A program made the position numbers and the translations under genes. Below are positions 27,899 through 46,323 of a stretch of 64,000 bases of DNA, one piece after another (positions within the stretch are counted from its first letter, which is position 1; each line of letters begins with the position of its first letter). Source of the DNA: Clostridiales bacterium (GTDB lineage Bacteria; Bacillota; Clostridia; Lachnospirales; CAG-274); the NCBI GenBank assembly GCA_021204175.1, contig JAJPZT010000075.1, forward strand, positions 35,123 to 99,122, read 5' to 3'. A model generated the notes under the pieces. The model worked only from the letters and a program-made list of their open reading frames with translations, did not search any database and had not been told where the DNA came from.

Positions 27899-27929
27899 TT
27901 GACAAGGGGGGGGTCAGAAAGCTTATAAT
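27899..27929 (+). promoter_or_regulatory. consensus -35/-10 promoter with a G8 tract in a 19-nt spacer
   Basis: TTGACA (27899-27904), then A plus G8 (27906-27913) plus TCAGAAAGCT, then TATAAT (27924-27929). Confidence 0.5.
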
Positions 27930-27961: not shown

Positions 27962-28450
27962 ATGAAGAAAATAAGCAGAAGGATTTTCATTGCTTTGCTT
28001 ATTGTTTTGGGGGCTTTGTTTTTGGGAAAATGGGCTTTAATCAAGAGTGGTGTTTTGCTTGATTTTGATTATGCGGGGAAATATTCTTATGAAGCACAGG
28101 AGTATTTGTCGGCTTTAGATGACAGTGATTACGGCTTATATTATCCCACGTGGCTGTTGATTACCTGTGAAGAGGACTTAAAGGAAAATGAATTAGGTAT
28201 AGACCTGTCGGAAATTGATTTATCCCAAATTGATTTTGACAAGAATTATGCTGTTCTGACGCTTGGGTCAAAGCTGAGAGCCCTGCACCCCTGTAACAGA
28301 AAAAACGTTAATCTCGAAAACGAAAGCTTTTGGGCTGATGTGTATGTAAAGAAAACAGATGACAATGACACTTATATTTATAAAATCAATAAATATAATT
28401 TGGCTAAAAACCTGTTGTTTGCTCCTTCCGGAGTGTTTTGTGTGTTATAA
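27962..28450 (+). CDS. hypothetical membrane-anchored protein
   Basis: 162 aa with an N-terminal TM/signal anchor and an AAAGGAGG SD. No motif recognised. Confidence 0.5.
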   Translation: MKKISRRIFIALLIVLGALFLGKWALIKSGVLLDFDYAGKYSYEAQEYLSALDDSDYGLYYPTWLLITCEEDLKENELGIDLSEIDLSQIDFDKNYAVLTLGSKLRALHPCNRKNVNLENESFWADVYVKKTDDNDTYIYKINKYNLAKNLLFAPSGVFCVL

Positions 28451-30330: not shown

Positions 30331-30339
30331 GGGGGGGGG
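30331..30339 (+). repeat. G9 homopolymer 5 nt upstream of the adhesin TTG start
   Basis: Counted directly from the sequence: ATGAA-GGGGGGGGG-CTCGG-TTG. Confidence 0.8.
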
Positions 30340-30344
30340 CTCGG

Positions 30345-33300
30345 TTGGGCAGAAAAAATCAGTCGGAAGACAAATATTTTAAAAAACAAAGACGTAAAAA
30401 ACTATGGCACCGTTTGCTTTTGGCAGCCGGTTCCATTGTTGTGTTTATAACCACTTATATGCTTATCCTCCCTGCCATAACCGCTGAGGTGGGCTCAATC
30501 GAGCTTTTCGACGAGTCCCTTTCCTCCGGCAGCGCAGTAACCCCCGTCGAAGACGAAACCTACATTATTATAGAAGAAACTACCGAAGAAACGGTTGAAG
30601 AAACCACCGAGATTATATCTGAAGAAACAACAGAAGACCCGTCTGAAGCCCTTTCCGAAGAAACCTCTGACCAAGCCTTAGAGGAAACTACATCGGGAAC
30701 AAGCTCCGGCGGCACAGATACCTCCGGCGGCGAAACTTCCGAAGAAACTGCCGAAGCTGCCACAGATGAGGTCTCTGAGGAAATAACCGAAGAAGCAGCG
30801 GAGGAAACTACTGAAGAGGAGTTTGTTATAACAGCCGACAGTATGATTTATGCTCTTCTGGGCGAAGCAGGCATAGCTCTCACAAGTGAAGAGGACGGAG
30901 AAGAAGAGGAAGACGACGGCTCAATCGAGCTTACCCTTACCGCCACAGTCAGCGGCAGCAGCTATTATACTGACACATATGGCACTGAAATATCATTCAG
31001 AGGAACGGGAACAAACGACAGCTATAACTGTGAATATGACCCTGACACAGGTAACTTTTCCGTAGACCTTGCTATCGACTTTGTAATGTCAGCTGCGATT
31101 TTGACAAGCGGCAATGTAACCGATTATAACAACGACACTCTTAACGGCAGCTATTACGGAGTTTATTCAATCGATTTACCTGAGGGAATTATAGTTCCCG
31201 ACAATGTTCTTAACAAACGTTACGAAGGCGTTATTTCCGGAACAAGCACCGTACTTTTTGACCTTTATTTTGAGAAATATACAGACGAAACTACCGGAGC
31301 AACTCGCTACAGAGTTTATATGGGCTTTTTAAACAGCCAGATAACAGGTAATGAAGAGACAATCAAAGGTACAATCAGCCTTGAGGGCTACATCAGCTCA
31401 TCCAGCTACAGCGACGGCAGCGTTGTCGTAACGGTAGGCGGTGAAAATGTTATTGAGATTTCACCGGATGAAATAACCTACAGCAGCGGCGAAACCATAG
31501 ACGAGGATATTTACGTTAAAAAATCAGGCTCTTACAACACAACCACAGACGAAAGCGGAAACACTACATCAACAGTCAGCTACACTGTTATGGTTTATAC
31601 CAAAAAGGGTACGGGTGAAACCATAACCCTGACCGACAGCTTTACTACGGAGTTTTCTTCTTCCGTTTTGTCTGACCCTTCAAGCAGCCTTCAAAGCATA
31701 ACCGTAAGCACAGGCACAAACACAGCCTATGTTTACTGGGAGGGCAAAGCAGATAATTTTAATGACAGCGAATTTGTAGAGGATACAGAAAGCCCCATAA
31801 CTCTTACTAATGGCACAGGAAACTACACTTATTATTATGACATCGACGGAAATTTGGTTATTACTCTTCCCGGTCTCAGTGATGTAGACGGCAAAGACGG
31901 ACAGGAAACCATTCTTGGCAGCAGTGACTGGAGATATTCAAAGGAAGATGTTGAGGTTTATTATGTAACCTACACCTATAAGGTAAGCCCTCAATATTCT
32001 GACTCCACTGCCAATAACACCGTTAAGGCTTCAACAGAGGACACAACAGCAGTCGAAACCATAACCGACACCTCCTCTGCTGAGGTTACCGTATCCAAAA
32101 AGACCGCCATTTCAAAAACAGCGGAATATTATACCGAGACAGACAGCGACGGCAATGAAAACGGCTATATAAAATGGACTATTGTAGTGGGCGACGGCTC
32201 AGCCTCTCTTGCAGGCTATACCCTGACGGATACAATGTTCAGCTCCGTCGGAGGAATAGAAGCCCTCAATTATAGTTCATTATATGAAAATGTTCATGTT
32301 TATACCGGCTCTTCAGAAGATGACAGCAACTTTGTTTATCAATACTATCCGGCGAACTGTTTTAGTATTGTAGATGAAAACGGCGTATTAACAGGCATTA
32401 AATTTCTCGAAGATGCCGAAAGTCAATATACAATCGTCTATACAACAGAAGCTTCTTCGTGGGATCAAACATATTTATCCAACACGGCTACCCTTACCCC
32501 CACAGAAAGCACAGACCCCGATGTTACATATACCCACGATTACGGAGATTCGAGCTTGTCGGCAGGCACAGAGGTTACTGTTCCTGCGGCAGGGGGCGAC
32601 ACCCTTGACAAAAAGATAGGCACTCCCGAATTATCCTCTGACGGAAAAACCTATACCTTTCCCTGGACTGTAACCATAACCATTCCCACAGGGGGCATAC
32701 CCGCCGGGTCTGAAATCGAAGACAGCCCCAGCACGGATAACCACTATATGACCTATGACCAGGCTAAGGCTCTGGGTGAGCTTGTTCACGAGGTTTTCGG
32801 CGACAACACCTACGTCTCCGTAACCTTCAGAAACAGCAGCTGGCAGTGGATTCATATAGACAACCTTGACGAAAGCACTTATTATTACGGCTATAAAATA
32901 ACCTTTAATAAAGCTGTAGCCTATGAAACCTATTCACAATATACAAATCTGACCGAAGATAATAAGCAGAGTTTAGGCTTAATTGACAGTTTCACCTACA
33001 CATCGGGCGACACCACTGCAACAGCCTCATATGATCATTATGACAACAAGGTTACTTTAAACTACTACTCCACAGGCTCAATATCCGACAGTCCCGCTTC
33101 AAGAACCTTTTCAAACACAGTCAGCGGCGGCGGCAGCTATAAGTCGGCTTCATACACTTATACAAATAATGTGGTTAAATACGGCTATTATCAGTCTCAC
33201 GGAACTGCCACAAGCCCCTACGCCACAAGCTTTACATCGACTGACGGCGAGGTCTCATGGGTAGTTAAGGTAGTTTTAGATACCTCCAACAACTGTTATA

Positions 33301-36300
33301 CCATAACGGATACTCTGCCCACAGGGGTCACTCTGAAAAAACTTCAGGTTTCAAACAGCGCATCAGATTCCAACAGCAAGTCAACACTGTATGCGGAAAC
33401 AACCACCGTTGATCCCTCTGTTGAAACCACCACAGCTGACCCCTCGACGGAAACAACTACCGCAGACGCCGGAATTTCCGAAGGGGAAACCCTTTCGGGA
33501 ATATATGACGGTGACTTAGATGTTTCCTACACGCTGGGCACAAGCGACAATACCGTTACGGTTTATGCCAATTACGGTGAAAATGCCAATGCAAGCAGCA
33601 TAACCCTTTATCTTTTCTATACCTGTCAGATAGCCGATGACTATCAAGGCGAAAATACTGCTTTTAATAACACTGTAAAAGTAAAAAATACTACTACCGA
33701 CAAAGACTACGGCTCAGGCTCTCAAACCACAACGGTATATTGGGATGTCTCTACGGGAACGGAAACAAAAACCGTCTCAAAGGATGACTATTTCGACACC
33801 AACAACAACAAAATAAAATACGCCATAACCATAGACAATGACAACGGAAACCCGTATACATATACTGTGACAAATGAAGACGGCTCAACAAGTCAGGAAT
33901 ATGACGACGATATGGTGATTTACGACGTCCTTTCCTACAACAGCTACCCCACCTACGGTCTTGTAAGAAGCGCAAGCCTTCAAAGCGACACCCTTAAGGT
34001 ATATGTAGACGACGGAACGCTGACCATAGCCGAAGACAAAACAGTCAGCGGCGGAACAGAGCTTGATTCGTCTCAATACAGCTGGACTCTTGAAAAGGTG
34101 GTCAACACCGGCTATGACGGAACGGAAGCCGTAGTTCAGACAATAAAGGTTACTTTGCCCAATGACGGAAGAAAATATGTTTTAGCATATGCATATAAAA
34201 TATCTATCATTACAGACGAAGTTTGGGCGAATAACTACACCTGGATCGACAACGACGGCACTGACGTAAAGGCTCACGCCACAAACTACGCCTATCTCAC
34301 CGTAAACGGCGAAACCAAAGTAACAACAGACTCAATTGAAACAACGGAATCCTATAACTTTGATTCGGTATCAGCCGAAGGAAGTACGGGTACGGGCTAC
34401 ACAATATATAAGGTTGATAAAGACAATTTCGCCCTGAAGCTTGAGGGAGCAACCTTTGACCTCTATGTTTATAACAAGGACGCTACCCCTGTAGGCTTTG
34501 AAAAGGTAGCAAGCATAACCACCAATTCAAAGGGCACAGCAAGCATTTCCGGCGTTATAAAATATTTGGACACATCTACGGGAACTTATTATGACCAAAA
34601 AGGCGATAACTGGGAACCTTACTACAGAATAACAGACCCCTCAGACAGCTCAAAATACATCTATATTCCCATAAACACACTCTGTTATTTTGTAGAGTCT
34701 GAAGCACCCACAGACTATCAGCTTGACGGAACAAAATATTATTTCTATTACGGCGAAACCATAGCCACTCTTTTAACAAGTGTTACAGGTCACGAATATG
34801 CCACTGACGTAACAGAAGCCGTAAATATTATTTTGGGCAATTCGGAGTATATCACTAACGGCCACACAGTGGATTATTACTCTGAAAAAACAAAAATTTC
34901 CGTTATAAAGTCATGGACGAATAACGAAGAAGACCCTAACGACACATACGAAAAAACCGACGACAGCCTTAACTTCACACTTTACAGAATCCGCAAGGAC
35001 TTAGACGGAAACTATTGGCCTGAAGAAGATGATGAGGACGAAACGTCTACCTCTGAAGGAGCAACGGAAGCCACAACCGAAGTGGTTACAGTAGGAGAAA
35101 TACCTTGGCAAGTAGATTTTCAGTGGAGTACAAATGTTGCTTCAGGAACTGTCGGGTATACAGAAAACACTAATTCATTAAAACTATCTTTATATCATCA
35201 ATATGCAGCTATAAATGAATCTGCCGGATATATATGGTATCCGGGGGTAACAATAACTGACGGAAACAGTAATGTTTTAGTAGAATATACTGGGTCGTCT
35301 TATGGTGAGGGTACGCTTGTAAGCGGCAATGGTTCTTGGACGGGTTCAACGACCAGTGCTGTAGGAGGTACATTTACAGCCACGATTAACCTAACAGATT
35401 CTGTTAAAGAAAAAGGCTTGATAATTAAACTTACCGATACTAACAATAGCGACACAGAAATATCTGTTTCTTTTGCTCTGTCAAGTGCTTCTGCCACAAC
35501 CACCACAGAAGCGGCTTCCGAGGCCTCTACCGAAGAAGTTTCAGAAGTCTCAACGGAAACCACCACCACAGTCCTCTATGCTCACGTTTTCCAAGACGAC
35601 GTAATAGAGACCACCACAGACGAACAGGGTAACTCCGAGGTGGTGGGGCACACCTTTAATAACGATTATAAGGATTATGAAAAGATAACCGATTCAAGTG
35701 AAAACTTCTTCAAATTCTACGGGGCTTTGACCGACACAAACGGCTCACAAACCTACAACGCTTACAAAGCCAACACAGCCACGCTGCTGACCAGATCCTT
35801 CAAGATGCAGACCAACGTAGACAGCGTCGTGGGCTCAGGCTCAACGACGATTGAATTCACTTCTCAATTGGGCGGTGTGCTGACTATGGTTTTCACAGAT
35901 AAAACCGACACCAACGCAGTAATTATTAACAGCTCCGACGGAACATCTCTAAACAAAACGGCGTCTAACTATAAGCTTCAGTGTCACCTTGACGCAGGCA
36001 GCTACACCATAAAAAAGAGTACATCCTCTTATGTAGTTTACATCTCCTTTGAAGAAGGAGCAGGGGATACATCCTCAGACGGCAACTCCGAGATTTTGAA
36101 CTTCAACGACGGCACAAAAGCCAACGACTTCTTTACTGTCAGCGGCTCCACAACCAGCAGCTACGGCGAGGTTACATATGTAAACTACTACGACACAAGC
36201 TTTACAAGTGCGACAGCTCTGAAAATGGGTTCTTCCTCGTCAATTACCTTTGAAAGCGCAAACGCAGGCACTCTCTATATGGTTTTCACAAACCCCAAGA

Positions 36301-38951
36301 AGGCTGCCTCCGTAGGCGCAAGTATCGACGGTAACGAACACAAGGCGTCAATCACCGACACAACCACCACAGACGGCGAGTATTATATATATGTGCTTTC
36401 CACATACATTGAAGCCGGCAGCCACACAATTAAGAGAATAGGCTCTACCGAATACCTTCTTTATTACATTCAGTTTGTTCCCGACGATTTCGGAAGCGGC
36501 GAGTGGAAGGAGCTTAACACTGACATAACCTCTATTGGCAAGAAAGTCAGCACCTTTACAATAAGCTACGCTTCAAACTGGCGGTGGACCTCAGAAAGTC
36601 TGCCAAGCCAGTGGATTAATGAAGAAACAGGCGAGGTTTTAGGCTACTACGAATATTACGTAGTTGAAGAAAGCCGCTATGACCCTCAGGACTCTTCAAA
36701 ACAGTGCTTCTATACCCTTTATATGAATAATGAGGGTATCGTCTCAGGCTCAATTAAGGTTTCAAACCGTATTAACCCCACTACAAGCGGCGTTGTGAGC
36801 CTTGACGTAAACAAGGTTTGGTATCAGGACGGAAAACAGCTGACATCACCGACAATTGACGACTACTCCGTTTCCTACACACTTTACAGAAAGGTCGTTC
36901 TTCTTTCCTCAACCGATCAGGACACAGGCGGAACTTATTCGGTGAACTTCGACAACAACATTTCCACCTTCTTCACCACAACGGGCACAACCCAGTCCGG
37001 CTCTTCAACCATAGGCACAGGCAACTACGGCGGCACGTCATACTCAACCACTCTTGCTTTTGACAGCACTTCAAGTACAGCCCCAAGCATAGCCTTTGAC
37101 ACCTTAGCCGACAGCGGCGTCCTGACCCTTGTTTTCAGTACGTACCTTCCGCCGGATGTCTATAACTCAAGCTCAAGCTATACCTCCGGCACTACAAACT
37201 ATGTCACCGCCGACGGAACTAACTATTATGCTATTTCTGATGACAGCGGCACTTTGAACAATACATTATATGTTGTTGACAGTTCTTCCTCAAGTGGTTA
37301 TAAGGAATGGGACGGCTCCGGTACATCTATAACCTATTATGCATTCTTTAACGAGAATTTGCAGGTTGATGAAAAGTATACAAGTGATACGAGCTGGAAT
37401 GATGATGATTTTACTTATACAGGCGACACAGACGATACAAGTAAGTTAGTACAGATTTATCAGTATACTGCAAATTCAATAGATGCTACTATGTATCGTC
37501 AAACTGATGCAAATAAGTTCGACAGAAGTAACGGTAACGGAAAAACCTATACTCTTGCAAGAACAAACAGTAACAGCAGTACTACTGATCCTAACAATTT
37601 TACAAGAATAAGAAATAATACATTAACCACAACCGTTGACGAAAAAACCGTAACCGGCGATGGAAAGTGTATAAATCTCTACAGAAGTACTGATGGCGGA
37701 AAAAGCTTCGTATCTATGGAGGGATATACTATAGACGAGGTTAAGGATCAGGAAACGGAAATTAACAACAGCCGTGCCTACTACATAAAGTCAGGCGACA
37801 GCTACATCCAAACCGACGGCAAATTCTACACCCTTCAGCAGTACAACACTGTGGGCTACGCCTTTACCCTGACTGTCCCCGGAGAAACATCAACTGTTTA
37901 TCAGTATGTTTATAACCCGGACACCGAAACCCTGACCATAACCGCAGGCGGCTCGGAGGTTTACAGCGGTTCAATTTCAGACTGCCCCGCAGCTTATCTC
38001 ACAAGCCTTGACATAGACGAAGACAACAACACTGTGGTCTTTGAAATTCCTCTAAGTGTCTACACGGGAGACTACTCAAGCGGCTATAAGGTGGGCTGTG
38101 TAAGCTCGGCTCTCTGTTATCTCTATTATGCCGAATATTTCTATAAGTATAATGACGCTAAAACCGGTATTGCCGTAGGCACAGGCACACTTGACGCCTC
38201 TAACGACTGGTCTGAAGAGTGGAGCAGTCTTACCTACCCCGTTTATGACGCAGAGGGCAACGGCACAATTATAGGCTATTATTCCTATTACATTGTGGAA
38301 ACCTCAGCCGACGGCGAAACGGGAACAACCTATTCGCCCACATATTCAGTCACTATGTATACTCAGGCTCTTGATTCTGACCTTGCTGACCTTGCGGAGA
38401 CGTATAAAGCGACGCTTACTCCTGATGAGAACACTTCAGCAGGAACAACGGCTTACTATAATAGTGATAGTGAACTTATTTATACTGAAACGGCAACAAC
38501 TGACGGCGAGGGTGTTACAACCTACACATATACGGCTTCAAGCGGTGAAACAATTTCGGATATTACAACATATCTTCTTAATTTGTATCTCGAAACTCTT
38601 GAAACCGATAAAGATTCCGAGGGCAATATTACCTATTGCAATACAACCCGTGATCCTAACGATAACTCTGTAATAAGCTCGCAGACGGTTTTGTATTATC
38701 AAGTCTCTGACGGAAACTATTATATCGTTTCATCTGTCAATGACGGCACAAGCTTAACGGCTGCTACCGCAGAAGCCGCTAAAATCAGCAGCTTCACAAT
38801 CACCAACACGGTGGAGGTTCAGGACGTTGTTCTGCCCTCAAGCGGCGGAGACGGCGGATTTAAGTATATTTTAGCAGGAACGCTCACAAGCCTTGGGGCG
38901 ATTCTGCTTCTATATAAATGCAGGAAAGGTTTGAGCACAAACTCCCGATGA
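30345..38951 (+). CDS. giant (2868 aa) sortase-anchored surface adhesin, pilus tip-adhesin candidate
   Basis: Has a basic N-terminus plus TM signal and an E/T-rich acidic linker. Repeated Cna-A-like K...W.I.V modules are present. SpaA/Cna-B-like modules occur (GATFDLYVY...YFVESEAPTDYQL; KISVIKSW...; LDVNKVW...). The C-terminal sorting signal is LPSSG (38832-38846) plus a hydrophobic helix plus KCRKG. Confidence 0.85.
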   Translation: MGRKNQSEDKYFKKQRRKKLWHRLLLAAGSIVVFITTYMLILPAITAEVGSIELFDESLSSGSAVTPVEDETYIIIEETTEETVEETTEIISEETTEDPSEALSEETSDQALEETTSGTSSGGTDTSGGETSEETAEAATDEVSEEITEEAAEETTEEEFVITADSMIYALLGEAGIALTSEEDGEEEEDDGSIELTLTATVSGSSYYTDTYGTEISFRGTGTNDSYNCEYDPDTGNFSVDLAIDFVMSAAILTSGNVTDYNNDTLNGSYYGVYSIDLPEGIIVPDNVLNKRYEGVISGTSTVLFDLYFEKYTDETTGATRYRVYMGFLNSQITGNEETIKGTISLEGYISSSSYSDGSVVVTVGGENVIEISPDEITYSSGETIDEDIYVKKSGSYNTTTDESGNTTSTVSYTVMVYTKKGTGETITLTDSFTTEFSSSVLSDPSSSLQSITVSTGTNTAYVYWEGKADNFNDSEFVEDTESPITLTNGTGNYTYYYDIDGNLVITLPGLSDVDGKDGQETILGSSDWRYSKEDVEVYYVTYTYKVSPQYSDSTANNTVKASTEDTTAVETITDTSSAEVTVSKKTAISKTAEYYTETDSDGNENGYIKWTIVVGDGSASLAGYTLTDTMFSSVGGIEALNYSSLYENVHVYTGSSEDDSNFVYQYYPANCFSIVDENGVLTGIKFLEDAESQYTIVYTTEASSWDQTYLSNTATLTPTESTDPDVTYTHDYGDSSLSAGTEVTVPAAGGDTLDKKIGTPELSSDGKTYTFPWTVTITIPTGGIPAGSEIEDSPSTDNHYMTYDQAKALGELVHEVFGDNTYVSVTFRNSSWQWIHIDNLDESTYYYGYKITFNKAVAYETYSQYTNLTEDNKQSLGLIDSFTYTSGDTTATASYDHYDNKVTLNYYSTGSISDSPASRTFSNTVSGGGSYKSASYTYTNNVVKYGYYQSHGTATSPYATSFTSTDGEVSWVVKVVLDTSNNCYTITDTLPTGVTLKKLQVSNSASDSNSKSTLYAETTTVDPSVETTTADPSTETTTADAGISEGETLSGIYDGDLDVSYTLGTSDNTVTVYANYGENANASSITLYLFYTCQIADDYQGENTAFNNTVKVKNTTTDKDYGSGSQTTTVYWDVSTGTETKTVSKDDYFDTNNNKIKYAITIDNDNGNPYTYTVTNEDGSTSQEYDDDMVIYDVLSYNSYPTYGLVRSASLQSDTLKVYVDDGTLTIAEDKTVSGGTELDSSQYSWTLEKVVNTGYDGTEAVVQTIKVTLPNDGRKYVLAYAYKISIITDEVWANNYTWIDNDGTDVKAHATNYAYLTVNGETKVTTDSIETTESYNFDSVSAEGSTGTGYTIYKVDKDNFALKLEGATFDLYVYNKDATPVGFEKVASITTNSKGTASISGVIKYLDTSTGTYYDQKGDNWEPYYRITDPSDSSKYIYIPINTLCYFVESEAPTDYQLDGTKYYFYYGETIATLLTSVTGHEYATDVTEAVNIILGNSEYITNGHTVDYYSEKTKISVIKSWTNNEEDPNDTYEKTDDSLNFTLYRIRKDLDGNYWPEEDDEDETSTSEGATEATTEVVTVGEIPWQVDFQWSTNVASGTVGYTENTNSLKLSLYHQYAAINESAGYIWYPGVTITDGNSNVLVEYTGSSYGEGTLVSGNGSWTGSTTSAVGGTFTATINLTDSVKEKGLIIKLTDTNNSDTEISVSFALSSASATTTTEAASEASTEEVSEVSTETTTTVLYAHVFQDDVIETTTDEQGNSEVVGHTFNNDYKDYEKITDSSENFFKFYGALTDTNGSQTYNAYKANTATLLTRSFKMQTNVDSVVGSGSTTIEFTSQLGGVLTMVFTDKTDTNAVIINSSDGTSLNKTASNYKLQCHLDAGSYTIKKSTSSYVVYISFEEGAGDTSSDGNSEILNFNDGTKANDFFTVSGSTTSSYGEVTYVNYYDTSFTSATALKMGSSSSITFESANAGTLYMVFTNPKKAASVGASIDGNEHKASITDTTTTDGEYYIYVLSTYIEAGSHTIKRIGSTEYLLYYIQFVPDDFGSGEWKELNTDITSIGKKVSTFTISYASNWRWTSESLPSQWINEETGEVLGYYEYYVVEESRYDPQDSSKQCFYTLYMNNEGIVSGSIKVSNRINPTTSGVVSLDVNKVWYQDGKQLTSPTIDDYSVSYTLYRKVVLLSSTDQDTGGTYSVNFDNNISTFFTTTGTTQSGSSTIGTGNYGGTSYSTTLAFDSTSSTAPSIAFDTLADSGVLTLVFSTYLPPDVYNSSSSYTSGTTNYVTADGTNYYAISDDSGTLNNTLYVVDSSSSSGYKEWDGSGTSITYYAFFNENLQVDEKYTSDTSWNDDDFTYTGDTDDTSKLVQIYQYTANSIDATMYRQTDANKFDRSNGNGKTYTLARTNSNSSTTDPNNFTRIRNNTLTTTVDEKTVTGDGKCINLYRSTDGGKSFVSMEGYTIDEVKDQETEINNSRAYYIKSGDSYIQTDGKFYTLQQYNTVGYAFTLTVPGETSTVYQYVYNPDTETLTITAGGSEVYSGSISDCPAAYLTSLDIDEDNNTVVFEIPLSVYTGDYSSGYKVGCVSSALCYLYYAEYFYKYNDAKTGIAVGTGTLDASNDWSEEWSSLTYPVYDAEGNGTIIGYYSYYIVETSADGETGTTYSPTYSVTMYTQALDSDLADLAETYKATLTPDENTSAGTTAYYNSDSELIYTETATTDGEGVTTYTYTASSGETISDITTYLLNLYLETLETDKDSEGNITYCNTTRDPNDNSVISSQTVLYYQVSDGNYYIVSSVNDGTSLTAATAEAAKISSFTITNTVEVQDVVLPSSGGDGGFKYILAGTLTSLGAILLLYKCRKGLSTNSR

Positions 38952-39196: not shown

Positions 39197-39283
39197 CATC
39201 CCCTTTTAAGGGGAGGGGGACCGCCCATACTGATTTTTTGTAAAAAAATCAGTACAGGCGGTGGTGGGGTATGTTCCATTTGA
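39197..39283 (+). repeat. intergenic structured repeat, family B, degenerate copy fused to family A copy 2
   Basis: CATCCCCTTTTAAGGGGAGG, a long hairpin ACCGCCCATACTGATTTTTT-GT-AAAAAAATCAGTACAGGCGGT, and a GGGGTATGTTCCATTTG tail. Confidence 0.65.
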
Positions 39284-39405
39284 AGCTACTAATTGAAGCT
39301 ACTAAGTCTTTGTAAATGGAACACAGTAATTGTGCAAACTCGGCAATATCAAGTAAAAAATCGAATAGATGGGAAACAACTCACACACAAATAACGACAA
39401 TTTGT

Positions 39406-39415
39406 GGGGGGGGGG
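39406..39415 (+). repeat. G10 homopolymer in the pilin-1 leader
   Basis: Counted directly. It lies 70 nt upstream of ATG 39486. Confidence 0.8.
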
Positions 39416-39485
39416 TAGATTTAGCCGGCCCGTATTAATCGGAAGCGTTTATCAACCTCCACAACTAAGAAAGGATGGTACTTTT

Positions 39486-41219
39486 ATGAAGAAAGTAACA
39501 AGATTTTTTAGCCTCCTCCTCGCAATAGCAATGGTTTTGGCAATGAACTTCGGTACTTTCACCGTTCCGGCGGAGGAAACTACCTATACACTTACAATTA
39601 ACAAACCCACAACGGGACACACATATTCGGCATATCAGATCTTCACAGGTGTTTTGTCTACAGACGGCAAGACCCTCTCAAATATTGCTTGGGGCTCTGC
39701 TACGACAGCTAAATCTTCGGATATTATCACAGCTTTAAAAACTGAACTTGGCTTAGCAGATAACACTGATTACTCAGCAGCCGACATAGCTGCATTGCTT
39801 ACAACAGGCAATATTGAAGCAGTAGCTAAAATATTAGCAACTTATAACGAAGGCTATACATACTTAGGCTCTGCAACATCTTCAGCTGAATGTACAGAAG
39901 GCGGTGAAGGGAAAATCGTTACTATCAGCAAACTTCCCGCAGGTTACTATTTGGTTATAGATACCTTAACAGGTACAGTTGCAGACTATGACGTATATTC
40001 ATCATACATCATTGAAGTAGTGGGAGACGCAACAGCTACCACAAAGCAGGACACACCTGAAATTCAAAAGAAGGTTGACGATAAAGACGATTCTACAGGT
40101 ACTGAAGACAGCACAAGTTGGCAGGATTCAGCTGACTACGACATCGGCGACGCAGTTCCCTTCCAATATACTGTAAAATTGCCCAGTAATTATGCTGACT
40201 ATGACACATATAAGCTCATATTCCACGATGAACAGAGTGACGGCTTGACATTCAACAATGATGTGGCAATAACAGTTTACATCGACGGCGATACAGAAAA
40301 CACATCTCAAGAGAATATTGTTGAACTTTCAACTACTCAGTATAAGGTTAATACAGATCAGCAAAGTGACAGCTGTGATTTTGAGATTACAATCAGTGAC
40401 TTAAAATCTGTTTCAACTTCTATTACTGCAAGCAGTGTAATCGTTGTAACCTATACATCAACACTCAATGATCACGCAGCAGTGGGCTCAACAGGCAATG
40501 ACAACGAGGTTTACCTTGAATACTCAAACAATCCTAACGATTCTTCCAAAACAGGTAAAACTCCGAAGGATAAAGTAACGGTATTCACCTTTGATGTAGC
40601 TATACACAAGGTAGACAGCAGCGGTAATCCTCTGGGCGGCGCAGACTTCACACTTTATAAGTATGACGCCGAAAGCACAACTTGGGTAGAGGTTTCAACA
40701 GAAACTTCCACATCTGCAGACCCTTCAACCTCAAAAGCTGTTATAAAGACAGTGGAAGATGAATCTTATACTACAGTAGTGGTTGAGAACAGTACCGAAG
40801 TTACAACTACAGTAACCGTAGAAAAGAGCAAATTCACCTTCAGCGGTCTTGACGCAGGTCAGTATATGCTTAAGGAGACAACAACTCCCGACGGATATAA
40901 CACAGCCGCAGATACTTACTTCACAATCGTAGCTTCACACTCTACAACTGCATCTGATCCCGAACTTACAGAGCTTTATATAACAGACGCAGACGGTACG
41001 GTTTTATCGAATAAATATTCCGGAGAAGAAGGTGCTCAATCACCGACATTTACTGTTGATAATTCAGCCGGAATTTCGACTAACATCATAAACTACACAG
41101 GTGCTGAACTGCCTTCAACCGGCGGTATGGGTACAAAAATATTTTATACTTTGGGCGGAGTCCTTGTTTTAGGGGCAGGCGTTCTTCTGATTGTTAAGAG
41201 AAGAATGAGAAACGCTTGA
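39486..41219 (+). CDS. LPXTG-anchored backbone pilin paralogue 1 (isopeptide-forming fimbrial subunit family)
   Basis: Signal peptide MKKVTRFFSLLLAIAMVLAMNFG. E-box-like YMLKETTTPDGYN. A SpaA/Cna-B-like C-terminal domain. Sorting signal LPSTG (41109-41123) plus TM plus KRRMRNA. An AAAGGATGG SD precedes the start. Confidence 0.85.
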   Translation: MKKVTRFFSLLLAIAMVLAMNFGTFTVPAEETTYTLTINKPTTGHTYSAYQIFTGVLSTDGKTLSNIAWGSATTAKSSDIITALKTELGLADNTDYSAADIAALLTTGNIEAVAKILATYNEGYTYLGSATSSAECTEGGEGKIVTISKLPAGYYLVIDTLTGTVADYDVYSSYIIEVVGDATATTKQDTPEIQKKVDDKDDSTGTEDSTSWQDSADYDIGDAVPFQYTVKLPSNYADYDTYKLIFHDEQSDGLTFNNDVAITVYIDGDTENTSQENIVELSTTQYKVNTDQQSDSCDFEITISDLKSVSTSITASSVIVVTYTSTLNDHAAVGSTGNDNEVYLEYSNNPNDSSKTGKTPKDKVTVFTFDVAIHKVDSSGNPLGGADFTLYKYDAESTTWVEVSTETSTSADPSTSKAVIKTVEDESYTTVVVENSTEVTTTVTVEKSKFTFSGLDAGQYMLKETTTPDGYNTAADTYFTIVASHSTTASDPELTELYITDADGTVLSNKYSGEEGAQSPTFTVDNSAGISTNIINYTGAELPSTGGMGTKIFYTLGGVLVLGAGVLLIVKRRMRNA

Positions 41220-41257
41220 TTTCCCTCTGAATAGGGTTACGCTTTGAGAATAGGCTT

Positions 41258-41285
41258 CCCGCCTTTCGGGGCGGGGGCTTTTGAA
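41258..41285 (+). terminator. rho-independent terminator after pilin 1 (probably partial)
   Basis: CCCGCC-TTTCGG-GGCGGG followed by GGCTTTTG. Confidence 0.55.
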
Positions 41286-41467
41286 GAACCGCCGATATCT
41301 TACCGGCGGCTGTCCAAAGGTAAAAAATATTTTTGATAACTCCATATTATTCCTCTGTTAGCTGTCCTGTGGTATGTATAAGCCTTTCTGTAAGTGTCAG
41401 TCTATGTCTTAAGGGACAAAGCCAAAACCAAAAATGTATTTTGACACGAAACTTAATTTTTTAAAGT

Positions 41468-41474
41468 GGGGGGG
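41468..41474 (+). repeat. G7 homopolymer in the pilin-2 leader
   Basis: Counted directly. It lies 76 nt upstream of ATG 41551. Confidence 0.8.
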
Positions 41475-41550
41475 TAATCGATACGTTAAGGAAACCGTTT
41501 AACGTTTATCGTCCTCCACAAAAAAATCCACAAAGAAAGGACAGAATAAT

Positions 41551-43266
41551 ATGAAAAAAATATCTAAAATATTAAGCCTCCTCCTCGCATTAACTATGGT
41601 TCTCTCTATGAACCTCGGCGTTTTAACCGCTCACGCAGATAGTTACACAATTAAAATTAATGAAAGTACTACAGACTATAAATATGAAGCTTATCAGATC
41701 TTTGACGGCGATTTATCCGGCAATACTCAGGGCAGCTATGTATTATCCAACATCGTTTGGGGTACTAATATAAGCAAAGACGGAACTCCTGAATATTCAA
41801 CTGTAATGACAGCTGTTAAGGAAATAACAATTGACAATTCCACATATCCGTTTGAAAACTGCACCTCTGCTGCAGATGTAGCTGATGTATTGAAAGATCT
41901 TTCGAAAGATGCAGCCCTTCTGCAGGAATTTGCTGATGTAATCTCTAAATATATAACAGGCAGCGGTGTTGCAAGTGAGTATAAAACAGACCACTATGAA
42001 ATTTCAATATCCGACCCCGGCTATTATCTTGTAAAGAATACATCTGCACCTGATGAAGACGGAGTTTACACAAGATTTATTCTTTTGGTTGTAGGTGATG
42101 TTGAGGCAACTCCTAAGTCTGCTGTACCTTCAGTAGAAAAGAAGGTTTATGAAGAATCCTATAACAGTGTAGCTCAAGAAATATCCGATTACGGTACTTA
42201 TTTCAATGATGTAGCTGACTATGACATCGGTGATTCGATTGACTTCAAATTTATAGGTACACTTCCCGATAACTTGAGTTCTTATTCAACTTATAAATAT
42301 GTATTCCACGATACAATGGACGCCGGTCTTACTTTTGACAGCGACAGTGTTGTGGTTACTATTGACGGCACAACTGTTCCGGCATCATATAGTGGAACTA
42401 CAAACTACACAGTTGTTTATGACGCTTCTAGTGCACAGACTGACGGCTGTACATTTGAAATAAGCTTTAGTGATATTTTAAGTCTTGTGGATTCTACAGG
42501 TGCAAAAATATCAGTATCAAGTACAAGCAAGGTTGTTGTTACATATAAAGCTACACTGAATGAAAATGCTAAAATAGGTCTTCCCGGCAACGTGAACGAA
42601 GTTTATCTTCAATATTCAAACAACCCCAATGAAGGCGGCAGCGGCGACACAGGTACAACACCTAAAGACAAGGTTATCGTTTTCACATATGAACTTGACG
42701 TAACAAAGGTTGACGGAACTGATAATACTAAAACTCTTGAAAACGCTGAATTTAAGCTTTATAAGGAAGTAAGCGGCGTTAAGTATTATGCTAAAGTTAC
42801 AAACGGCAAGGTAACAGGCTGGACAACAGACCCAGATGAAGCTGCTGTATTAACTTCTGGCACTGACGGTAAATTCAGCATAGCAGGTCTTGATGACGGC
42901 ACATACTTCCTGTTAGAGACAAAGGCTCCTACAGGGTATAATCTTCTTTCCGACCCTGTTGAACTTACTATAACGGCAAACACAGTTAATGGTCAGAGCT
43001 GGTCCGGAACCGCAACTGATGCTTTAGCCGCATGTGACTCTAATACAGACCCTGACTCAGCTTCATTAACAATTACAGTGGGTACAGCAAAAACCAGCGG
43101 AAATTCAACTGATGGTACAGTTGGTACAACTGTAGCGAATAACACAGGTGCTACACTTCCCGAAACAGGCGGTATGGGCACAAAGATCTTCTACACATTA
43201 GGCGGAATACTTGTTGTTTGCGCAGGCGTTCTCCTTATTGTTAAGAGAAGAATGAGAAACGCTTAA
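41551..43266 (+). CDS. LPXTG-anchored backbone pilin paralogue 2
   Basis: Signal peptide MKKISKILSLLLALTMVLSMNLG. E-box-like YFLLETKAPTGYN. Sorting signal LPETG (43156-43170). The C-terminal tail GGMGTKIFYTLGG..AGVLLIVKRRMRNA is shared with pilin 1. Confidence 0.85.
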   Translation: MKKISKILSLLLALTMVLSMNLGVLTAHADSYTIKINESTTDYKYEAYQIFDGDLSGNTQGSYVLSNIVWGTNISKDGTPEYSTVMTAVKEITIDNSTYPFENCTSAADVADVLKDLSKDAALLQEFADVISKYITGSGVASEYKTDHYEISISDPGYYLVKNTSAPDEDGVYTRFILLVVGDVEATPKSAVPSVEKKVYEESYNSVAQEISDYGTYFNDVADYDIGDSIDFKFIGTLPDNLSSYSTYKYVFHDTMDAGLTFDSDSVVVTIDGTTVPASYSGTTNYTVVYDASSAQTDGCTFEISFSDILSLVDSTGAKISVSSTSKVVVTYKATLNENAKIGLPGNVNEVYLQYSNNPNEGGSGDTGTTPKDKVIVFTYELDVTKVDGTDNTKTLENAEFKLYKEVSGVKYYAKVTNGKVTGWTTDPDEAAVLTSGTDGKFSIAGLDDGTYFLLETKAPTGYNLLSDPVELTITANTVNGQSWSGTATDALAACDSNTDPDSASLTITVGTAKTSGNSTDGTVGTTVANNTGATLPETGGMGTKIFYTLGGILVVCAGVLLIVKRRMRNA

Positions 43267-43363: not shown

Positions 43364-43420
43364 GCTTCCCCTTTTAAGGGGAAGTACCTGCCGATAGGCA
43401 GGGGATAGGGTGCTTTCCAT
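43364..43420 (+). repeat. intergenic structured repeat, family B, short copy
   Basis: GCTTCCCCTTTTAAGGGGAAGT, a short hairpin CCTGCC-GATA-GGCAGG, then GGATAGGGTGCTTTCCAT. Confidence 0.7.
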
Positions 43421-43440: not shown

Positions 43441-43550
43441 TTCCAATGGAACATACCCTATCGTCAACCACTGTGCAATTCTTTTTCCAATAAAATCGTG
43501 CGGAAAAAAGAATTGCACAGCCGTTGACACTTCCCCTTAAAAGGGGAAGC
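43441..43550 (-). repeat. intergenic structured repeat, family B, long copy in inverted orientation
   Basis: The reverse complement reads GCTTCCCCTTTTAAGGGGAAGTGTCAA, then a long hairpin (CGGCTGTGCAATTCTTTTTTCC...GGAAAAAGAATTGCACAGTGG), then TTGACGATAGGGTATGTTCCATTGGAA. Confidence 0.7.
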
Positions 43551-43605: not shown

Positions 43606-44463
43606 ATGAAAATTGACAAAGTGACAATATTTTTGTTTTTAATTTTACTGGGCGGAATGGGTCTGCTTTTATATCCCACTGTCAGCGACTATTGGAACTC
43701 ATTCCACCAGTCAAGAGCCATAGCCTCATATGTAGAGGCGGTTGAAAGCTTAAGCACAGAGGACTATGAAGCGATTATTCAGGCGGCAAGAGACTATAAC
43801 GCAAAGCTTTATAACAACCCCGGCAGGTGGCAAATGACGGAGGCAGAACTTGAGGAGTATAACAGTCTCCTTGACGTTTCAGGCTCAGGAATTATGGGCT
43901 ATATCGACATAGACAAAATCAATGTGGAGCTGCCTGTTTATCACACTGTAGACGACGCTGTTCTTCAGGTCGCCGTGGGGCATATGCCCGGCTCTTCACT
44001 GCCAATCGGCGGAACAAACACCCACGCCGTTTTGTCAGGTCACAGGGGTCTGCCTTCAGCAAGGCTTTTTACTGATTTGGATAAGCTGACAGAAAAGGAC
44101 ACATTTGTAATTACGTTTCTTGACGAAAAAATTACCTACGAGGTTGACCAAATTAATATCGTAGAGCCCACCGACGCTTCAAAGCTTGCTTTTGCCCCCG
44201 GGGAGGATATTGTTACACTTATAACCTGTACACCCTACGGCGTAAATTCTCACAGGCTTATGATTAGAGGTCACAGGGTGGAAAACGCAGAGGAAGAAAT
44301 TGTTTTGAATGTGTCGGCTGACGCAAATAAAATTGACCCGGTTATTGTTGCGCCTATGGTAGCAGTTCCCATACTGCTGCTGTTGTTTGCGGTTATGATG
44401 GTAAAAACAAGCAAAAAGGGAAATAAAAAGGAAAACAAGAAGGAAAATAATGATAAACAGTAA
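43606..44463 (+). CDS. class C (pilin-polymerising) sortase
   Basis: 285 aa with an N-terminal TM segment, the catalytic His block VLSGHRG, TLITCTPYG with the Cys, a conserved Arg (LMIRGHR), and the C-terminal TM typical of class C. Confidence 0.88.
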   Translation: MKIDKVTIFLFLILLGGMGLLLYPTVSDYWNSFHQSRAIASYVEAVESLSTEDYEAIIQAARDYNAKLYNNPGRWQMTEAELEEYNSLLDVSGSGIMGYIDIDKINVELPVYHTVDDAVLQVAVGHMPGSSLPIGGTNTHAVLSGHRGLPSARLFTDLDKLTEKDTFVITFLDEKITYEVDQINIVEPTDASKLAFAPGEDIVTLITCTPYGVNSHRLMIRGHRVENAEEEIVLNVSADANKIDPVIVAPMVAVPILLLLFAVMMVKTSKKGNKKENKKENNDKQ

Positions 44464-44482
44464 AAATTCAGGCGGTGTTTCT

Positions 44483-45694
44483 ATGAAAAAAAACTTTGTT
44501 TTAGGCTTAATTTGTGCAGTTTTAGGGGCTTTGGCTTTGTCTGTGACGGCGTTTGCCGACAACGACGGCTCCATATCGCTTGACTGCGATGTGGAGGGTA
44601 TTACCTATATGCTTTACGGCGTAGACGACTATTATGAGGTGGGGGACGAAACTTACGATAATGTATACTATGCTTATAAAATCGACCCTAATGGGTCCTC
44701 TGCCGATTTTACTGCGTCGGCTTATATTCTTCGAGATGACGTTCAGGCTTTATATACGGCGGTGACCGACAGCGAGGGCGAGGCTGTGTTTTCAGACCTC
44801 GACGACGGGGAGTATCTGCTTGTGGCTGAGGTTTACAGTGACGGCGCATTTGTTTATGTGGCTGTGCCGGCTGTAGTTACTGTTTACAGCGGTGAGGTTA
44901 CGAATGTCAGCGGTAAAATCGCAGTTACGTCCCTTACTGAGTCGGAGGACGTGGAGTCAATTTCCGCGCTGAAGGTTTGGAGCGGCGACTATGACGATGA
45001 AACGCTGGAGAAGGGGATAACAGTTCAGCTTTTGCGTGACGGCAAGATTTATGACGAACGGGAATTGAACAGCGACAACAACTGGCGCTGTACATGGAGT
45101 AACCTTGTGTCTTCTTATAACTGGCTCGTGGTGGAAAAAGAGGTTCCGGACGGGTATATGCTGAATATCGAACAGGACGGCACTGTTTTTATAATTACAA
45201 ACAGTACTCTTAAGGGAGACCCCGAGGGGGGTTCCGAAGGGGGAACGGAAGCCACAACAGAGGGAGAAGGCGAAGTCACAACGGATAAATCCTCCGGAGG
45301 TGAAGGGGAAACTACCACAGAAGCGGCTGCCGAAACTACAACAACTTCAAAAACCAACAGATCAGGAGGGGGAACTCCGAAGTCATTAAACCCCGAAACT
45401 GAAACGGAAACTGCCGCATCGGCAGAAAAGGGCGAAGGCTCTACATCGGAAAGCCCCACAAGCCCTACGGACAGCCCCGACGATGGTGAACAGGACACTA
45501 CTGCGGAAAGCAGTTCGGAAGAGCCGCCTGCGGAAACTACCTCGGCAGGGAATGACGAGCCACAGGGAAACGAACCCCCTGAAAGCAGCGAGAGCCTGCC
45601 CCAGACGGGTCAGCTTTGGTTCCCGGTTCCTATACTTTCATGCGTGGGAGCACTGTTTTTGATTATCGGAATAGGCAGAAGGAGAATGAGCTGA
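44483..45694 (+). CDS. Cna-B-domain LPXTG protein with a Pro/Glu/Thr-rich stalk, basal (anchor) pilin candidate
   Basis: Has a signal peptide and a prealbumin-like domain (TDSEGEAVFSDLDDGEYLLVAE). A Cna-B domain is present (ALKVWSGD...NWRCTWSNL...VVEKEVPDGY). A low-complexity P/E/T/S region follows, then LPQTG (45596-45610) plus TM plus RRRMS. The alternative start at 44450 overlaps the sortase stop. Confidence 0.72.
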   Translation: MKKNFVLGLICAVLGALALSVTAFADNDGSISLDCDVEGITYMLYGVDDYYEVGDETYDNVYYAYKIDPNGSSADFTASAYILRDDVQALYTAVTDSEGEAVFSDLDDGEYLLVAEVYSDGAFVYVAVPAVVTVYSGEVTNVSGKIAVTSLTESEDVESISALKVWSGDYDDETLEKGITVQLLRDGKIYDERELNSDNNWRCTWSNLVSSYNWLVVEKEVPDGYMLNIEQDGTVFIITNSTLKGDPEGGSEGGTEATTEGEGEVTTDKSSGGEGETTTEAAAETTTTSKTNRSGGGTPKSLNPETETETAASAEKGEGSTSESPTSPTDSPDDGEQDTTAESSSEEPPAETTSAGNDEPQGNEPPESSESLPQTGQLWFPVPILSCVGALFLIIGIGRRRMS

Positions 45695-46323
45695 TGAAGA
45701 AAAAAGGCAGTGTTTTTATTGCCCTTGGGATTGTGATGATTTTGGGGGCGTTTTTGCTGACGGGGTATAATGTTCTTGACAGCTTAAGGGCTGAAAGAGC
45801 GGCTGCGGCTGAAGCGGAGGCACTGAGAGCGAAGCTTGAGGAAGCGGCTGCTGAGGCGCTTGATAATTTTACTATTGACGAGAAGCCCCTTTATGTGCGT
45901 TATCCCGATATGAAGATGCCCGAGATTGAGATTGACGGGGTAAAATATGTGGGGATGCTGAGTGTGCCCGGGCTGGGGCTGGAGCTGCCTGTTAAGGGCG
46001 AGTTCAGTATGGCAGGGCTCAGGACTGCGCCTTGCCGTTATGCCGGGTCGGTTTATAAGGACAATATGATAATTTGCGGGCATAATTACAGCTCACATTT
46101 CGGCAGTTTGAAAAATATTAAGGTGGGGGACGGCGTGGAGTTTACCGACGGGGACGGAAATGTTTTTGATTATGTGGTTTCGGATATTGCCCAGCTTGAC
46201 GGGTCGGATGTTTCGGGAATGACGGAAAAACAGGAGGACGACAGCTGGGATATGACGCTTTTTACCTGTACGCTGAGCGGCAGCCAGAGAGTCACCGTCA
46301 GACTTTTGAGAATTGAACAATAA
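45694..46323 (+). CDS. second sortase (small, non-class-C; probable cell-wall anchoring sortase)
   Basis: Has an N-terminal TM segment, a His block (IICGHNY) and TLFTCT with the Cys. An ATGA overlap joins it to the preceding gene. Confidence 0.8.
   Translation: MKKKGSVFIALGIVMILGAFLLTGYNVLDSLRAERAAAAEAEALRAKLEEAAAEALDNFTIDEKPLYVRYPDMKMPEIEIDGVKYVGMLSVPGLGLELPVKGEFSMAGLRTAPCRYAGSVYKDNMIICGHNYSSHFGSLKNIKVGDGVEFTDGDGNVFDYVVSDIAQLDGSDVSGMTEKQEDDSWDMTLFTCTLSGSQRVTVRLLRIEQ

Follow-up and report, generated by a model that had tools for sequence, protein, structure and literature searches.

Upstream of the second of two backbone-pilin genes (pilin 2) in a 64,000-nucleotide (nt) stretch of contig JAJPZT010000075.1 from a Clostridiales bacterium, hereafter the window, lies a short leader with a run of seven G's. 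We hold, with moderate confidence, that this leader is a conserved stem-loop whose 5' arm is a slippage-tuned poly-G tract that sets pilin-2 output, and that it does so by a route other than an upstream open reading frame (uORF). The G run would probably act as a heritable expression dial for a surface fibre. A paralogous leader, with a run of ten G's, precedes pilin 1, whose product is 43% identical to that of pilin 2. The pattern of the 3' arm (the box, 16 specified bases) occurs exactly twice in the 64 kb, each time preceding a pilin gene. Coordinates are collected in Table 1. Those given in a preliminary description for the pilin-2 tract and box, the upstream ATG, the TTGACA and TAAAGT hexamers and the pilin-2 ATG are exact, and the pilin-1 twin that it had pointed out was confirmed in the sequence.

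Table 1. Features of the pilin-2 leader, its pilin-1 paralogue and the surrounding locus (positions in the window)
Feature	Position	Strand	Basis and remarks
5' arm of the pilin-2 leader stem-loop: GTG plus hypermutable G7 tract (41468-41474)	41466-41474	+	Pairs with the box in all folds; TAA 41475-41477 prolongs the arm
Variable inner hairpin (CGATACGTTAAGG-AAA-CCGTTTAACGTTTATCG)	41479-41511	+	Minimum-free-energy structure, z = -2.7; 3' end overlaps the 5' half of the box
Box CGTTTATCGTCCTCCACA, 3' arm of the stem-loop	41503-41520	+	28 nt past the end of the tract
A-rich linker with pilin-2 Shine-Dalgarno AAGAAAGGA (41533-41541)	41521-41550	+	Read in the sequence
Pilin-2 gene, SpaH/EbpB-type LPXTG backbone pilin of 571 amino acids (aa)	41551-43266	+	Pfam GramPos_pilinBB, SpaA, Gram_pos_anchor; homologues found
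uORF of the preliminary description (ATG 41434), probably fortuitous	41434-41502	+	No upstream Shine-Dalgarno; start unconserved in sister species; read-through frame closed in L092 and L097
TTGACA (41441-41446)-N15-TAAAGT (41462-41467), promoter-like, candidate only	41441-41467	+	Motif reading; abuts the tract
Terminator-like GC hairpin and short T run 3' of pilin 1	41256-41283	+	By eye: CCCGCC-TTTCGG-GGCGGG-GGCTTTT
Pilin-1 leader stem-loop, paralogous: GTG plus G10 (39406-39415), inner hairpin, box CGTTTATCAACCTCCACA (39446-39463)	39404-39463	+	Sequence and folds; box 30 nt past the tract; pilin-1 ATG at 39486
2,868-aa protein with CBM77 module	30345-38951		Pfam
Backbone pilin 1	39486-41219		Pfam
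Class C sortase	43606-44463		Pfam
Cna_B minor pilin	44450-45694		Pfam
Second sortase	45616-46323		Pfam

Protein searches and look-ups gathered 14 such leaders from seven to eight related uncultured Clostridia that have one gene order in common (Table 2, where L numbers denote contigs). Their common plan is GTG, 7 to 11 G's, TA[AG], a variable hairpin, (T)TATC-NN-CCTCCAC, an A-rich stretch, AAGAAAGGA and ATG. TATC..CCTCCAC is kept in 13 of the 14, L102 supplying the lone variant, and among pilin-2-type leaders the A-rich linker is near-identical, with a distance of 37-38 nt from box to ATG. The pilin-1-type leader carries G7 to G11 in L092-L094 and L097-L099, and G9 in L001. Absence of the box from orthologous loci had been named beforehand as the observation that would speak against a function; within the clade, the box was found in all 14 leaders. 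The preliminary description had rested its case on conservation of both the box and its distance from the tract. The first part holds, in that the box is constrained and pairs with the tract in every leader, but a fixed spacing is not conserved: the interval from the end of the tract to CCTCCAC is 38-43 nt in most leaders, 64 nt in the L097 pilin-2 leader and 133 nt in the L005 pilin-1 leader. Because the interior of the stem-loop varies in this way, the argument from equal spacing falls.

Table 2. Tract lengths in the leaders of the window species and its relatives
Species	Contigs	Pilin-1 leader	Pilin-2 leader	Remarks
Window species	window, L001	G10, G9	G7, G10	
Species B	L004, L002			One leader seen: G7, G8
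Species C	L003 = L005	G9 (133-nt interior)	G9	
Species D	L092-L096	G9, G9, G7	G9 in four contigs	
Species E	L097, L098	G11, G10	G8 (tract to CCTCCAC 64 nt)	
No species group	L099	G8		Pilin-2 leader not in the data
Species F	L102	Run interrupted	G9	Pilin-2 box variant ACTCCAC
Species G	L103	Run interrupted	G9	

The two arms are complementary, 5'-GUGGGGG..GGUAA-3' facing 5'-UUAUC-NN-CCUCCAC-3'. In the pilin-2 leader, TTATC can pair with GG-TAA or GATA, and (T)CCTCCAC with GTGGGGG(G); the TA[AG] after the tract resembles a stop codon, but its presence is explained by pairing with UUA of the box. The pairing of GTGGGGG with CCTCCAC, proposed on first reading, was recovered in all leader folds, and in the predicted structure of all 14 leaders the tract arm and the box enclose the inner hairpin. 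A shuffle test on nine leaders gave z = -1.2 to -5.1, and RNAalifold recovered both outer helices from an alignment of ten. Between lineages the interior is unrelated in sequence and ranges from 28 to 133 nt, only the arms being conserved, as is usual for stem-loops whose apical part is free.

Where the run is interrupted, an A is placed opposite the U of CCUCC (pilin-1 arm GGGAGGG, containing GGAGG, in L103; GAGG in the pilin-1 leader of L102), and the A/G change following the tract preserves an A-U or G.U pair. The inner helix changes from GAU/GUU in the window to GGU/ACC in L092. Inside the box, the substitution 41512 T>C in L001, one of only two in 4.2 kb, converts a G.U into a G-C pair. 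The assembly that carries it is also the one whose pilin-2 tract is three G's longer.

The tracts of the pilin leaders are hypermutable and vary independently within one genome. We compared independent assemblies of the same species, in three species. Over 4,239 aligned nt, the window and L001 differ by two substitutions, and the sole two indels are the tracts (pilin 1 from 10 to 9, pilin 2 from 7 to 10). L092 and L094 differ by one substitution in 4,428 aligned nt, and again the sole indel is a tract (pilin 1, 9 to 7); L097 and L098 have no substitution in 2,054 aligned nt and one indel, once more in the pilin-1 tract (11 to 10). The resulting pilin-1/pilin-2 combinations are G10/G7 in the window, G9/G10 in L001, G9/G9 in L092 and G7/G9 in L094. 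Observed lengths run from 7 to 11, with G9 the commonest, and contigs L096 and L100 each start exactly at a tract. The earlier proposal that the two shaft-pilin paralogues are switched independently is thus plausible, since their tracts change length independently between near-identical strains; the uORF mechanism offered for it fails, as set out below.

As to how length might be read, the predicted free energy was lowest at nine G's in five leaders, by 2.5-3.5 kcal/mol relative to eight or ten, and nine G's bring both helices into register. In the mechanism that we propose, replication slippage would change the length of the pilin-2 tract heritably and independently of the pilin-1 tract, and that length would set the register of two stacked helices. 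Nine G's would fit exactly, five against CCUCC, two against NN and two against UC of UAUC. The amount or translatability of pilin-2 mRNA would then be tuned in graded fashion, as by a volume control with an optimum near G9, rather than by a switch of reading frame. That the helix forms in RNA and that expression changes with tract length are both steps that we infer. The most specific version of the model is a heritable RNA rheostat of a kind not yet described among riboregulators. It would pair a genome-encoded, slippage-prone poly-G arm with an arm mimicking the anti-Shine-Dalgarno sequence, and the helix register would tune mRNA fate with an optimum at G9, separately for each shaft pilin, GGAGG alleles being 'locked'. 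We regard this version as tentative and, taken whole, rather doubtful.

Several points weigh against the proposed mechanism. The outer arms are almost invariant and show no double-compensatory covariation because they barely vary. The predicted helix forms at any length of at least five G's by bulging, so that the structure itself would be a weak sensor of length, and the predicted accessibility of the pilin Shine-Dalgarno is nearly flat across tract lengths. The interrupted, 'locked' alleles indicate that the helix is selected without hypermutability. If transcription started 7 nt past TAAAGT, most of a G7-G9 tract would be left out of the RNA. Lastly, tract lengths were taken from consensus metagenome assemblies, in which long homopolymers are prone to error; assembly error alone would hardly account for a difference of 3 nt and for a pattern that recurs.

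Some of these points are shared by an explanation that we rate as possible though distinctly less probable, namely that the leader is structural only: the G run would be kept for a strong 5' stem-loop with CCUCCAC, for instance as an mRNA stabiliser ahead of a pilin gene that is highly expressed, and changes in its length would be a tolerated by-product. Stem-loops at the 5' terminus that protect Gram-positive mRNAs are well established (aprE, ermC). Formation of the helix at every length of at least five, the flat predicted accessibility of the Shine-Dalgarno and the retention of the helix without a run in the interrupted alleles of L102 and L103 are all as this explanation would have it. What it does not account for is that 12 of the 14 leaders hold an unbroken run of 7-11 G's although the middle two G's face NN (often AA), where G is dispensable for pairing. 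Moreover, two more G tracts of the window occupy positions that are classical for switches, namely a promoter spacer and the start of an open reading frame (ORF). Tracts as the sole indels between strains also count against it, to the extent that they show a high rate of change, not use.

Other functions of the folded leader were considered. In the window, L092 and L097 leaders, pairing of the box with the Shine-Dalgarno (GUCCU with AGGAC) is predicted to become possible when the RNA includes fewer than five G's of the tract. Sequestration of the pilin Shine-Dalgarno by the box, relieved by the tract, was rejected; its predicted effect is about two-fold, and it appears only in the CGTCCTCC leaders. 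GGA loops of the CsrA type are inconsistent between leaders (by eye), and an intrinsic terminator on either strand was discarded, there being no U run, an A-rich sequence after the stem-loop and no entry for it in the terminator scan. The box also resembles the 3' end of 16S rRNA, the anti-Shine-Dalgarno sequence (AUCACCUCC).

A promoter-geometry switch, in which the tract lies within the core promoter (spacer, or discriminator and start) and its length alters promoter strength or start choice, possibly with reiterative addition of G, appears unlikely for pilin 2. The window, L102 and L103 do have TTGACA and, after a 15-nt spacer, a -10-like TA[AC]AGT that abuts the tract (TTGACA-N15-TACAGT in L102 and L103, by eye), and G runs at start sites are known to cause reiterative transcription (PMC7039003). 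If the TAAAGT promoter were real, the tract would constitute the discriminator and the initially transcribed region, its length setting the number of 5' G's, and reiterative addition would be possible. In the pilin-1 leaders (window 39394-39421), ACGACA-(ATTTGT+Gn)-TAGATT would even place the tract in the spacer (16 nt at G10, 17 nt at G11), and the G8 tract at 27906 lies clearly within the spacer of TTGACA-N19-TATAAT. Pilin 2, however, has no -35/-10 pair that spans its tract; the TTGACA-TAnAGT spacer of 15 nt, and of just 13 nt in L092 and L097 (by eye), is short for a sigma-70-type promoter; and a consensus sigma-70 scan with spacers of 16-18 nt found nothing in either leader. Neither promoter arrangement explains the conserved complementarity of box and tract. 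Pilin 1 may nonetheless use tract length differently from pilin 2, because its ACGACA...TAGATT resembles a promoter with the tract in the spacer. A promoter of the extracytoplasmic function (ECF) type (GGGAAAC-N17-CGAC, by eye) was seen in pilin-1 leaders only and was set aside, no sigma-factor or regulator gene lying nearby.

Pilin 2 probably has a promoter of its own, because a terminator-like GC hairpin follows pilin 1. This hairpin falls under the T-run criterion of the terminator scan and is conserved in L092, L097, L102 and L103. Upstream of the pilin-2 leader, two conserved motifs, CTGTCCAAAGGTA and GCTGTCCTGTGGTATGTAT (window 41308-41322 and 41361-41379), may be candidate binding sites of some regulator; GCTGTCCTGTGGTATGTAT is tandemly duplicated in L092.

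The preliminary description had interpreted the tract as a uORF-phase switch coupled to pilin translation. In such a switch, as in Streptococcus gallolyticus Pil1, a leader peptide would be translated through the tract, the tract length would determine where it stops, and ribosomes would open the structure or couple translation. Its arithmetic is sound: with G7 the frame from ATG 41434 stops at TAA 41500-41502, with G8 at TAA 41475-41477, and with G6 or G9 at a TGA overlapping the pilin-2 ATG, which sits within ATGA 77 nt downstream of the G7 tract. In the window, L004, L002 and L005, the stops of the three frames likewise fall immediately after the tract, ahead of the box, and at the pilin start or past it; each uninterrupted tract is followed by TA[AG]; and there is a precedent (PMC3894217). 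Comparison among the leaders nevertheless makes the model very improbable, and we rejected it on grounds of conservation. No Shine-Dalgarno precedes any candidate start, that at 41434 included. The ATG is ACG in L102 and no ATG occupies its place in L092, L097, L103 or L005, the sole nearby ATG in L005 abutting its tract. In the pilin-2 leaders of L092 and L097, no frame opened by an ATG, GTG or TTG enters the tract, and each of the three frames meets a stop ahead of the box; the upstream-ATG frame in the pilin-1 leaders of L097, L098 and L099 terminates short of the tract. Finally, the box is read in differing frames across leaders, and the stem-loop lacks a U tail.

Least probable is a role of the arms as a DNA inverted repeat (a binding or recombination site, or a cruciform): they do form one, which in L103 is perfect (GGAGG/CCTCC), but 12 of the 14 leaders need G.U, that is, a G.T or C.A mismatch in DNA, so that RNA is favoured over DNA structure, the arms lie anywhere from 28 to 133 bp apart, no assembly shows an inverted orientation and no recombinase gene lies nearby.

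By its Pfam content the locus is a sortase-pilus locus. Only four runs of at least seven G's occur in the window, all on the coding (+) strand at the 5' ends of four consecutive adhesin/pilus transcription units, and this placement at surface-adhesin genes is the usual signature of contingency loci. Two properties of a simple-sequence-repeat contingency locus, polymorphism of the repeat (in three species) and a homopolymer at the leader of a surface gene, were found here. The first of the two tracts outside the pilin leaders is a G8 (27906-27913) between a perfect TTGACA and TATAAT with a 19-nt spacer, upstream of a 162-aa ORF (27962-28450); G6 would yield the optimal spacer of 17 nt, as in a classical promoter-spacer switch, and contig L100, from another run, starts precisely at this tract. 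The second is a G9 (30331-30339) directly after ATG 30326, whose frame at G9 stops after 18 codons. At this length, also present in L100, the ORF of the 2,868-aa CBM77 adhesin can be started only from TTG 30345, for which the tract could serve as Shine-Dalgarno; G8 or G11 would put ATG 30326 in frame with the adhesin.

Other features were noted at the locus and in its relatives. A dispersed palindrome similar to repetitive extragenic palindromes (REP-like), (CTT)CCCCTT[TA][TA]AAGGGG(AAG), is intergenic at 39200-39219, 43365-43384 and 43531-43550, and the copy near 43384 is a breakpoint common to the contigs of six sequencing runs. Between the window and L092, L097, L099 and L102, the pilin-1 leader is almost identical, as is the stretch that encodes the signal peptide (39369-39560), and the mature pilins are only ~50% identical; the conserved 5' part against the diverged mature pilin is suggestive of a mosaic gene, or of an exposed part under diversifying selection. 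The pilin-2 orthologues are disrupted in two assemblies, by a frameshift in L102 (8152-9878) and an in-frame TAA in L103 (8097-9869), and their leaders retain G9 and the box. In L002 (6001-7824), G8 brings an upstream ATG into the reading frame of the pilin, and the 607-aa protein P0002 was therefore called from that codon. G tracts of this kind thus break assemblies and shift automatic start-codon calls, which matters for annotation.

Among 80 pilin loci of species-representative genomes, the leader was present only in the closest two (55-57% identity; metagenome-assembled genomes MI.B8_6 and C.6_8). No pilin locus at or below 50% identity had it, nor did the P0003 locus (L085; 56% identity), whose leader is an ordinary AGGAGG one. 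A scan of the Joint Genome Institute (JGI) metagenomes for box plus Shine-Dalgarno gave one chance match within a coding region, the clade being absent from that collection. Rfam 15 yielded nothing at gathering thresholds in the window, and nothing up to E = 5 in 39250-41600. In pilin loci of unrelated Lachnospiraceae and other Clostridia, we did see coding-strand runs of G8-G10, 70-130 nt upstream of the pilin or next gene and with no CCTCCAC box (L042:19-27, L046:2927-2934, L081:2921-2928 and L048:4766-4775). The L048 run has a C-rich partner of its own (CTCCCCC) past a small hairpin, and L046 and L081 have GAAAATC-G8 in common.

Pathogens are well known to switch their surface structures by means of repeats; in uncultured fibre-degrading gut Clostridia this is barely documented. 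At the present locus, genes for a giant CBM77 adhesin, two shaft pilins and sortases stand together with four G tracts in three kinds of position (a promoter spacer, an ORF start and two leader stem-loops). With four separate tracts, one organism could therefore display many heritable combinations of adhesive fibres. If our reading of the pilin-2 leader is correct, the repeat would work as one strand of a conserved RNA helix, and thus by a mechanism different from frameshifting and from promoter spacing alike.

In the 'volume control' of Neisseria (porA, opc) and Moraxella catarrhalis (uspA1, a poly-G), a homopolymer in the promoter or 5' untranslated region, outside the ORF of a surface adhesin, works best at one length, and output declines by degrees when it is longer or shorter, as we propose for pilin 2. 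The Neisseria and Moraxella tracts exert their effect by way of -35/-10 spacing or by an undefined influence of the 5' untranslated region, and we know of none for which pairing with a conserved box in a leader stem-loop has been described. A promoter-spacer repeat of the porA/opc/hif type was not found at pilin 2; the G8 tract at 27906 is one, and the pilin-1 tract could be.

The pairing itself has a counterpart in Bacillus subtilis pyrG, where RNA polymerase adds G's at the 5' end in response to CTP and this poly-G pairs with a pyrimidine-rich segment further along the leader that is a strand of the terminator (PMC7039003). In the pilin-2 leader, too, a 5' poly-G is predicted to pair with a downstream pyrimidine-rich segment. 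Unlike in pyrG, its G's are encoded in the genome and vary heritably, and its box is not part of a terminator. The -10-like hexamer that abuts the pilin-2 tract would, if used, bring the start of transcription near the G run.

Poly-G tracts also occur in the sortase-dependent pilus clusters of another gut commensal, Bifidobacterium breve, in which slippage generates a range of lengths and intragenic frameshifts (PMC9187656, Penno et al. 2022). The setting and the slippage-generated length range are alike. The tract at pilin 2 is not inside a pilin coding sequence, being upstream of the pilin-2 Shine-Dalgarno and ATG, and an in-frame fusion exists in some leaders only. The G9 tract beside the start of the giant adhesin (30331) may belong to this intragenic Bifidobacterium type.

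Closest in spirit comes Pil1 of S. gallolyticus, a sortase-pilus operon in which, as here, a slippage-prone leader repeat lies near a stem-loop upstream of the pilins. Its repeats (GCAGA) are in a leader peptide translated from a ribosome-binding site of its own, ribosomes open the stem-loop, which is a premature terminator, and expression is heterogeneous and heritable (PMC3894217, Danne et al. 2014). These defining parts are not present at pilin 2: in neither the window nor the sister leaders does the repeat lie within a translated leader ORF that is served by a ribosome-binding site, and neither the sequence nor the terminator scan revealed a premature intrinsic terminator between leader stop and pilin. 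The repeat at pilin 2 is instead poly-G and is itself an arm of the stem-loop, which has no U tail and no conserved translated leader. On our best reading, the pilin-2 leader would represent a new, leader-RNA version of repeat-driven phase or 'volume' variation, thematically akin to the pilus G-tracts of Bifidobacterium (PMC9187656) and to S. gallolyticus Pil1.

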